Source of the DNA: Haplodiscus bocki
Taxonomy: Eukaryota
Direction: 5' to 3'
NCBI GenBank assembly: GCA_965655095.1
Contig: OZ296652.1
Location: forward strand, 18,538,001 to 18,602,000
DNA: 64,000 nucleotides
The notes under the pieces are model-generated. The model did not search any database, was not told the origin of the DNA, and was given only the letters and a program-made list of their open reading frames with translations. The position numbers were made by a program, and so were the translations under genes. Shown here in pieces: positions 45,803 to 47,090 of the stretch (the first letter of the stretch is position 1; each line of letters starts with the position of its first letter).

Positions 45803-47090
45803 ACGACCAACATTTCCCTTGCTGGAACACGACTCTGCTGAACGGAATTGACTGGGAACAAACCTTATCTCCGCTTGGTTGAAATTTGCCAACGGACCCA
45901 GATATTATTACTCTCCTTTCTTCTTCCTCCTCTCCTATCTCTCCGGTTGTCTTGTTGGATCAGCCACCAAACCCGTTAGTCAACAAATTCCTCCAACCTT
46001 TAACAGATAACCCGATCCAGTTCACAGATAACCCTACGGTCCCACAGCACGAGTCTAGGGCCAAAATTTTTTTGCCGTCAATGTTTGATTCCAATGCCCA
46101 CTCTAATAATGCCCGATCGGACAAACCACAATCTACTCCCTCTTCTCCAAGACGACAACCTTCTAATTCTACAGCTCTGAGAGTCTCAACTCGAATCACC
46201 AGCGCCTCTTTTTCACGAACAAATAGGTTTCAAAACATTCAGCAAGTTTCTACACAGAAACCGAGAGTGAGTTACCTCCAATGTCGCAAATGTGTTCGAA
46301 GACCCAAATTTAACCCCTATTTACATTACAAATTAACTAACGCATTTTCCTTTTGGGAGATTGTATTCTGGGATTATAAAAGACAGGAGTATATTTTTCA
46401 TAATACTGCTTTATCATCACAGAGATTTGTGGGACCTCTAACAGCTATCAAAGTTCAATCCGTCGAATGACATTGAACCCACACGAACCCTTATTTCAGC
46501 AACAAAACCTCTCACGATTATTCTCCTTATATCGCTCTGAATTGCTTACCGCAATGGATGGACAAGACAGCACAGACACCGTCTTGTGGAAGTTAACGTC
46601 ATTGAAGTTCGTCTTCGACACTGCCAGATTCTCTACTCAGCTCGACATTGCTGCCAAAGACCCCAGAACTGACTATACCAGCCCTTTGTACCGCAAACAA
46701 CGTCATGACTGTACCTTTTTTGTTCAGTTCTATCCATATGGTCTGGACTCTGCCCCGGGAACTCACGCCTCAATTATGTTCGCATTGTTCCCCGGAGAAT
46801 ACGATGGTTTATTGACATGGCTGTTCCCTAAATTGATTCACCTTGCGGCTCGCGATCAACTCGACCCCCATTACAACTGGACTAATACCTTGGAAACCCC
46901 AGAAAAACTATTCTTTTGACGGCCTGTCCGAGACACCTGTCCTACACTGACGAACTTCAAATTCTTTCCACACATCAAGATGTTCAGCAAAACTGAAAAC
47001 TTCCTTTCACATAATACTTTAAATATGGAGATAAAATTCACCGACCTACCTGACCCTGAAGGAGCCACACCTTCTTCATCCCAATCATGA
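45803..47090 (+). pseudogene. Accessory gene with Ser/Pro-rich N-terminus and C-terminal TRAF-type MATH (TRAF-C) domain
   Basis: VLWKL..YTSPLY..FFVQFYPYGLDSAPGTHASIMFALFPGEYDGLLTWLF..RDQ..F*RP..FKFFPH..FL..NTLNMEIKF. One frameshift (~46467) and one stop (46917). Confidence 0.88.

Follow-up and report, generated by a model that had tools for sequence, protein, structure and literature searches.

The 64,000-nucleotide stretch of the Haplodiscus bocki genome analysed here (the window) contains, at positions 31561-49475, a 17.9-kb LTR element, a decayed Ty3/gypsy-type copy with an F-type env whose last gene is a TRAF open reading frame (ORF). The element has the features of its class, namely TG..CA LTRs, a target-site duplication (CAGC on either side), a primer-binding site and the order protease, reverse transcriptase (RT), RNase H and integrase. 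Its LTRs, each of about 2.3 kb, differ at 60 of 2231 aligned columns (2.7%). The features listed below are numbered within the window, and A, B, C and D denote four families of related elements in the same genome.

31561..33851, + strand: 5' LTR (TG...CA), with CAGC directly before it
33855..33872, + strand: primer-binding site TGGTGCGACCAGTGAGGC, 18 nt, identical or 1 base off in four families
35185..36495, + strand: gag, broken by frameshifts and stops (tblastn; PF03732 in the C11 copy)
36465..41162, + strand: pol with protease, Macro domain, RT, RNase H and integrase, broken (profile matches, tblastn)
41588..42049, - strand: antisense ORF in the pol-env interval, where families A, B and D have one too
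43178..43195, + strand: splice-donor-like motif (GGTGAGTTGT in family A copies), repeating the motif just before the 3' LTR
43478..45698, + strand: env, a mononegavirus-type fusion glycoprotein, broken by at least 11 stops and by frameshifts (PF24664, E 2e-4)
45740..45802, + strand: pyrimidine tract and AG, splice-acceptor-like by sequence, with a similar site after the env stop in four families
45803..46470, + strand: ORF-X, broken (stop at 45880-45882), recognized by family comparison
46467..46470, + strand: ATGA, in which the ORF-X stop overlaps the TRAF start codon (read from the sequence)
46467..46502, + strand: PAM2-like N-terminal motif, decayed (MTLNPHEPLFQQ against MTLNPHAPIFKP in the family), from comparison with family copies
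46467..47090, + strand: TRAF ORF, 207 codons, with an in-frame TGA at 46917-46919 (Pfam profiles, solved domains)
47135..47143, + strand: CCGGTGAGT at the polypurine-tract position, not purine-rich, with GGTGAG kept in four families
47144..49475, + strand: 3' LTR, with CAGC directly after it

The window pol lacks about 295 codons near 39830-39884. Between protease and RT lies a Macro domain (window ~37400-37800; L037:7556-10000; PF01661, E 2e-5, above cut-off in the C11 copy), which might counter a defence based on ADP-ribosylation; searched against protein databases, the protease-Macro region matched 33 ENA proteins only. In the interval between pol and env, the antisense ORF (150-240 aa; L038:3481-4083, minus strand) has an acidic, proline-rich start and a C-terminal half conserved in A, B and D, with no match in Pfam. 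The same interval holds a 136-aa ORF (MHQLE...; L038:4937-5422) and two ORFs of about 73 aa (window ~42750-43171); one of these small ORFs was scanned and matched no family.

In place of a polypurine tract before the 3' LTR, all four families have a pyrimidine-rich stretch followed by GGTGAG. A single further occurrence of this motif (window 47135-47146; GGTGAGTTGT in A, GGTGAGTTAT in B) lies upstream of env and co-varies with it by family; this upstream one, at 43178-43195, may be a splice donor, a central plus-strand primer or both. Elsewhere in the window, a 483-aa single frame at 59421-60872 (+) encodes a DEG/ENaC channel (PF00858, E 2e-27), two decayed copies of another element lie in opposite orientations at 537-1449 and 15345-16270, and 15881-16228 (-) has a weak, Polinton-like match to protein-primed DNA polymerase B (E 1e-4).

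A TRAF domain in a dead copy

An initial sequence-only reading had described positions 45803-47090 as a host-derived TRAF-C (MATH) domain just upstream of the 3' LTR. The domain call was borne out: with the stop read as X, 46554-47087 matches PF21355 (TRAF-mep_MATH) at E 5.1e-9 (37 bits against a cut-off of 27.4) as well as PF22486, and among solved TRAF domains those of TRAF4/5/3/2 (best E 2e-7), so that the absence of any MATH match, which the reading had allowed for, did not materialize. The proposed span does contain the TRAF ORF, but it joins two ORFs in different frames (ORF-X, ~45803-46470, and TRAF, 46467-47090), and MATH proper takes up only ~46572-47072. The motifs LWK, SPLY, YPYGLDSAPGTHAS, GEYDGLLTWLF and DQ indeed lie in one forward frame, but F.RP contains the TGA at 46917-46919. 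As described, the TRAF ORF is uninterrupted by introns and stands directly upstream of the 3' LTR, ending at 47090, 53 nt before it, in a slot after env that is fixed; the likeness to lentiviral nef holds for position and for nothing further.

A bare TRAF-C gene is not what the family carries, as unbroken copies encode 433-441 aa with two coiled coils. The window copy has lost 226 codons in frame, which removes both coiled coils and joins the N-terminus to MATH, and its dN/dS against its nearest relative is 0.64, as expected of decay after insertion. It is a dead, internally deleted member of its family.

Four element families with the same layout

Searching the 1.5-Gb genome (6,626 contigs) with the MATH sequence returned 3,857 first-look candidates. 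Among the best 150 of these, a set biased toward intact copies, 137 are stop-free over the matched part, with frames of 433-441 aa in many cases, and 3 have the coiled-coil-deleted short form. Of the best 30 PF21355 loci, 26 adjoin ORF-X or env (25 of them also an LTR) and 4 lie outside elements. The unbroken ORF reads, in order, PAM2-like start, coiled coil 1, S/T/P linker, coiled coil 2 and MATH.

A search from a divergent relative added three further families, B, C and D, to family A. All four are laid out as env, splice-acceptor-like site, ORF-X, stop/start junction, TRAF ORF and LTR, so the conservation across copies that had been proposed as a check is found in these families. The order env, ORF-X, TRAF recurs in all seven regions compared, five of which have LTR pairs. 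Elements are 18-21 kb long, and relative to family A, pol identity is 57% in C and 74-81% in B and D. The env is a separate F-type gene after pol, as in errantivirus-like elements, with a 750-aa frame that matches PF24664 at E 1.3e-31 in the C11 copy. Young copies exist, with LTR pairs 99.2-99.97% identical; the copy at the upper end of this range has a pol frame of 1859 aa, comprising protease, Macro, RT, RNase H and integrase, and its mononegavirus-type env is 750 aa long.

Several rearranged or divergent forms accompany these copies. Two deletion derivatives, L058 and L073, fuse the env N-terminus to MATH (L073 in frame), and a similar skip occurs in contigs of three of four sequencing runs. 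One family-C element (L125-L126; G000:C10:65788001-65808000) carries five tandem 2.8-kb copies of the env 3' half, ORF-X and TRAF, each with an open TRAF frame. Five divergent TRAF proteins from the database (P0180, P0196, P0257, P0280 and P0276) perhaps represent, judging by their sequences, a fifth family.

Purifying selection on the TRAF gene

We computed dN/dS on shared variants and excluded codons differing at multiple bases from the ratios. For MATH, the shared-variant ratio is 0.09 in A (29N/94S, 36 sequences, p 5e-58), 0.02 in B (5 sequences) and 0.06 in C (11 sequences, a set that includes tandem copies), and private variants in family A give 0.66. Finer ratios, based on variants present in at least three copies among 29 distinct intact family-A ORFs from 55 loci, are 0.09 for MATH, 0.05 for coiled coil 1, 0.10 for the first 30 codons and 0.25 for the second linker, whose private variants reach 1.31. 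Between families, synonymous sites are saturated (pS 0.69-0.82), and MATH identity is 51-53% within the trio A, B and D, dropping to 30-35% against C; between B and D, MATH is 53% identical whereas env is 92% identical.

A RING-less host subfamily as donor

Two TRAF loci, L052 and L053, have no element homology within 40 kb, and share with families A and D both the pattern FPLxNxKxxQYLHAxQ outside MATH and an unusual YP[YF]G turn. In phylogenetic trees, all element TRAFs group with the subfamily of these two loci, apart from canonical TRAFs (supports 98/97 and 100/100), in agreement with the host origin first proposed. Families A, B and D form one group together with P0180; for family C, a single element clade, and with it one capture in place of two, is neither rejected (p-AU 0.34) nor established, and long branches meet at this point of the tree.

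Towards the end of MATH, L052 and L053 are both interrupted by a GT-AG intron at one shared position (H[S]|KL), where the element ORFs are continuous. The missing intron indicates capture through spliced RNA, a route that these sequences make very probable; an older intron-less paralogue is a possible alternative source. Other intron-less TRAF relatives (P0130, P0133, P0211 and P0240) are available as sequences without genomic context.

The first exon of the L053 gene is short and encodes one half of a single zinc finger; the 28 kb upstream of it yielded no RING, while the identical exon search recovered RING and finger exons in another host TRAF. The control protein P0137 has both RING and zinc fingers. 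Full-length relatives of the subfamily, including RefSeq models from the acoel Convolutriloba macropyga (named relative XP_075250303-6), gave no RING or zf-TRAF match; this kinship makes it probable that the host is itself an acoel. By these comparisons, the donor is a lineage-specific, RING-less host TRAF subfamily. The element does lack a RING and a zinc-finger array, as initially observed, but so does its donor, and the element therefore did not remove a RING. The idea of a dominant negative made by RING loss is not supported, since the donor subfamily is natively RING-less and has one degenerate zinc finger.

We regard as firmly established that these elements carry an intron-less TRAF gene that is kin to a host subfamily, occupies a fixed position in four families, lacks the host intron and is under purifying selection.

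ORF-X and the stop/start junction

ORF-X is built of an acidic/hydrophobic start, an S/P-rich middle, a basic patch and a conserved 55-aa C-terminus, whose codons have a shared-variant dN/dS of 0.07. It has no matches in Pfam and Atlas, and by its composition looks like a trans-activator. Families A, B and D lack an early ATG in this frame, and C has its own. The pentamer TGGGA, a candidate for an upstream RNA element that tethers the ribosome, is fixed about 96 nt before the ORF-X stop in all four families, where it is dictated by conserved Trp-Asp codons.

The ORF-X stop and the TRAF start lie within 20 nt of each other, a spacing compatible with termination-reinitiation. The junction is ATGA in 56 of 60 family-A locus records (some copies occur twice; 47 distinct contexts), TAATG or TGATG in 5 B copies, TGATG in 2 D copies, and a stop followed by 2 nt and ATG in 10 C copies. 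Stop/start reinitiation is described for SART1, caliciviruses and influenza B, where AUGA and UAAUG overlaps, within 20 nt, follow a long ORF (accessible part of PMC10275272). Unlike in those systems, the geometry here varies by family, and a closeness that is kept while the geometry shifts fits such reinitiation (same part of PMC10275272). The TRAF protein is thus probably made from a spliced RNA by reinitiation after ORF-X. In contigs of four sequencing runs, none of the 15 joints listed is GT..AG, and there are 191 further joints; as the kind of contig is unstated, this speaks neither way.

A PAM2-like start

The TRAF ORFs begin with MTLNPHAPIFKP in A, MSLNPLAP[AV]FLP in B and MTLNPFAPTFRP in D. 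The pattern L-N-P-x-A-P-x-F-x-P is kept in these three families though the surrounding N-termini are unalignable, synonymous changes are seen, and 61 of the 66 family-A database proteins that cover the N-terminus retain it. The motif sits where the host donor has its zinc finger; in family C, both the motif and coiled coil 1 are absent. The PAM2 profile PF07145 scored E 0.007-0.011 (15.8-16.4 bits, below the cut-off of 20) in all three family copies tested and had no match in the window copy. PAM2 motifs are ligands of the MLLE domain that is found in poly(A)-binding protein (PABP) and in UBR5. A search of the genome for MLLE domains returned a UBR5-type exon only, without retrieving the PABP MLLE. 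On balance, the motif favours the view that the TRAF protein of A, B and D would be tethered to PABP or another MLLE protein.

Such a tether could also be the main point of the protein: the TRAF part would then chiefly be a trimer scaffold displaying three PAM2 motifs, competing for PABP with host decay or silencing factors and thereby favouring element RNA. Retention of the motif in A, B and D and in most A proteins, the low ratio of the first 30 codons, and a short form that keeps N-terminus and MATH in frame all agree with this reading. We nevertheless consider it unlikely, as family C lacks the motif and yet has its MATH under selection, the host-derived coiled-coil-1 motif is conserved (dN/dS 0.05) where a plain scaffold would have no need of it, and the MLLE search gave the UBR5-type exon alone.

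Fold, trimer model and receptor groove

The predicted element TRAF consists of a coiled-coil helix (2-39) and a TRAF sandwich (pLDDT 86), with TRAF4/1/5 as best fold matches in the PDB and iridovirus TRAFs as best viral ones. Family copies have the two defining parts of a TRAF, the MATH beta-sandwich and a TRAF-N coiled coil before it; the N-terminal RING and zinc fingers of the TRAF2-6 type are absent in element and donor subfamily alike. A mixed trimer was modelled from one element chain and two chains of the host type (P0293, which shares 93% identity with L053 over 190 aa). Its score was 0.66, whereas the best of three controls had 0.00. It thus passed a mark that 51 of 78 solved pairs and 2 of 108 mismatched ones attained, although TRAF trimers have already been solved and likeness to them may explain the pass. 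Contacts agreed by at least 95% between runs, and partner pLDDT was at least 79. The model tips the balance slightly towards mixed trimers with host TRAF. Preferential conservation of the trimer interface was tested and found no support (7/18 interface against 54/140 other positions identical in A/B/D, p 0.59).

Of the TRAF2 labels, we take D399, S467 and G468 to be receptor-groove positions. Aligned through P0137, a mapping by sequence whose register near beta-7 is uncertain, the donor keeps equivalents of TRAF2 R393, Y395, F410 and G468. Families A, B and D have lost F410 and G468, A also R393 and D also Y395, while family C keeps R393 and G468. The hot spots of the TRAF receptor groove are a hydrophobic pocket, a serine triad and R393/Y395 (accessible part of PMC6125299); this combination, typical of receptor-binding TRAF1/2/3/5, is missing from the elements, and the triad is missing in the donor too. 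To judge by these residues, the altered groove could serve a new ligand instead of being a dead site.

The host genome has a TNFR-type cysteine-rich exon, TIR domains (10 matches) and a TRAF with RING and zinc fingers. The Rel-homology profile PF00554 had no matches in the genome, in an insensitive search that had no positive control and likely missed an NFAT-like gene; one sub-threshold Rel-type exon is presumably NFAT-like. Loci L147-L150 are members of a host family that has expanded and whose long frames carry a TIR domain close to the C-terminus, and the long TIR frames examined are not LRR receptors as far as followed.

These data bear on the function first proposed, a decoy that fills the TRAF-binding motifs of TNF-receptor/Toll proteins and blocks NF-kB/JNK signalling. 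The RING-less TRAF-N/TRAF-C architecture, the host's receptor-type exon, TIR domains and RING-bearing TRAF, and the partly kept groove of family C would suit it, but groove residues that the donor keeps are altered in A, B and D, the changes at hot-spot positions (as given in the accessible part of PMC6125299) differ among the three, and the donor was RING-less to begin with. Together with the lack of PF00554 matches beyond the sub-threshold exon, insensitive as that search was, and TIR frames that do not appear to be LRR receptors, this leaves the decoy weakened and improbable. As the groove has changed in A, B and D in a different way each time, we favour a spoiler subunit over a receptor-occupying decoy.

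We give slightly less credence still to an active mimic, which would switch signalling on by clustering its partners or by recruiting IAP/TRADD-like proteins, leading to proliferation or to cell death and release. ORF111L, an iridovirus TRAF, is reported to bind TRADD and to set off caspase-8 apoptosis (accessible part of PMC3352826), iridovirus TRAFs are the best viral fold matches, and between B and D the divergence of MATH outpaces that of env, which could be expected of an interface that is being retargeted; killing the host cell would, however, ill suit a vertically inherited element.

Proposed mechanism

In the spoiler reading, an env-bearing Ty3/gypsy lineage would have acquired a RING-less host TRAF through spliced RNA and kept the gene after env. 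Spliced element RNA would be read through ORF-X, and stop/start reinitiation would then yield the TRAF protein, which would join host TRAF chains in mixed trimers, its altered receptor groove making it a spoiler subunit. In A, B and D, the PAM2-like motif would relocate the TRAF complex to mRNPs, and stress or death signalling would be blunted in cells with an active element. We give even odds to a selected accessory TRAF that enters host trimers as a spoiler and blunts stress or death signalling, and see the inhibitory, pro-survival direction of the outcome as equally balanced, given that the viral TRAF ORF111L is reported to act the other way and promote apoptosis (accessible part of PMC3352826). 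As family C lacks the PAM2-like motif and coiled coil 1 and partly keeps the groove, one mechanism may not fit all families.

Passive transduction of a functionless host fragment, which the broken, near-neutrally decaying window copy (dN/dS 0.64) and the deletion derivatives might suggest and which does hold for dead copies, is refuted for the family by shared-variant dN/dS of 0.02-0.09 in three families, frames open despite synonymous saturation and a conserved stop/start junction, so that the segment is neither private to this copy nor free of purifying selection, as the sequence-only reading had allowed it might be.

Relation to known systems

Complex retroviruses place accessory ORFs between env and the 3' LTR (nef; the foamy bel region), with splice-acceptor-like sites. 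The gene described here differs in having no sequence relation to these, in belonging to a Ty3/gypsy-type element and in stopping before the LTR without overlap. Like TRAF1, it combines a coiled coil and TRAF-C without a RING, and the donor subfamily has one degenerate zinc finger (compared with the accessible part of PMC6125299); unlike TRAF1, it lacks the serine triad, has a PAM2-like motif in place of the finger and derives from a lineage-specific subfamily. The megalocytivirus TRAF ORF111L is likewise virus-encoded and host-derived, with the same fold, but belongs to a large DNA virus, is of fish TRAF origin, is reported to be pro-apoptotic (accessible part of PMC3352826) and is 22-24% identical.

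The closest precedent is Burro (GYPSM1), an abundant giant gypsy-type element of planarians that combines a MATH_TRAF_C domain with an env akin to the fusion proteins of mononegaviruses, so that this pairing in a gypsy element is already known (accessible part of PMC6431247, as for the following on Burro). In Dugesia tigrina, MATH lies in a separate accessory ORF. Burro itself exceeds 30 kb; its env is in frame and sits between gag and pol, its MATH lies in or upstream of the polyprotein, and it carries BIR, BCL2 and ankyrin domains. None of its distinguishing traits (env between gag and pol; BIR/BCL2/ankyrin; >30 kb) is found in the Haplodiscus bocki elements, which are 18-21 kb long, with a separate env after pol, TRAF last, Macro in pol, a PAM2-like start and an identified donor.

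In the literature searched, with Repbase and subscription papers outside its scope, Burro was the only LTR element with a TRAF and no PAM2 in a retrotransposon was found; in the accessible main text of an eLife survey (PMC13524379), the terms TRAF, acoel and macro have no occurrences. Nothing in that literature matches the identification of a donor, the loss of its intron, the selection, the stop/start junction or the PAM2-like fusion.

Selected capture of host genes is rare in LTR retrotransposons, and here donor, intron loss and long-term selection over four families are visible in one genome, which goes beyond the available account of Burro (PMC6431247, in part). The capture suggests that invertebrate env-bearing elements manipulate TRAF signalling much as complex viruses do, and that the RING-less host TRAF subfamily is likely to have a share in defence against retroelements or in the control of cell death. 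Through its thousands of candidate copies, the TRAF gene could influence host signalling, and a PAM2-TRAF fusion would tie innate signalling to mRNA control. More speculatively, and in our view doubtfully, a retrovirus-like gypsy lineage of complex make-up, with a full counter-defence kit (Macro, trans-activator-like ORF-X, antisense ORF), may have fused a TRAF trimer to a PABP hook, dragging TRAF complexes onto mRNPs and keeping infected stem or germ cells alive; if true, this would, with planarian Burro, represent convergent TRAF capture in two regenerating worm lineages.
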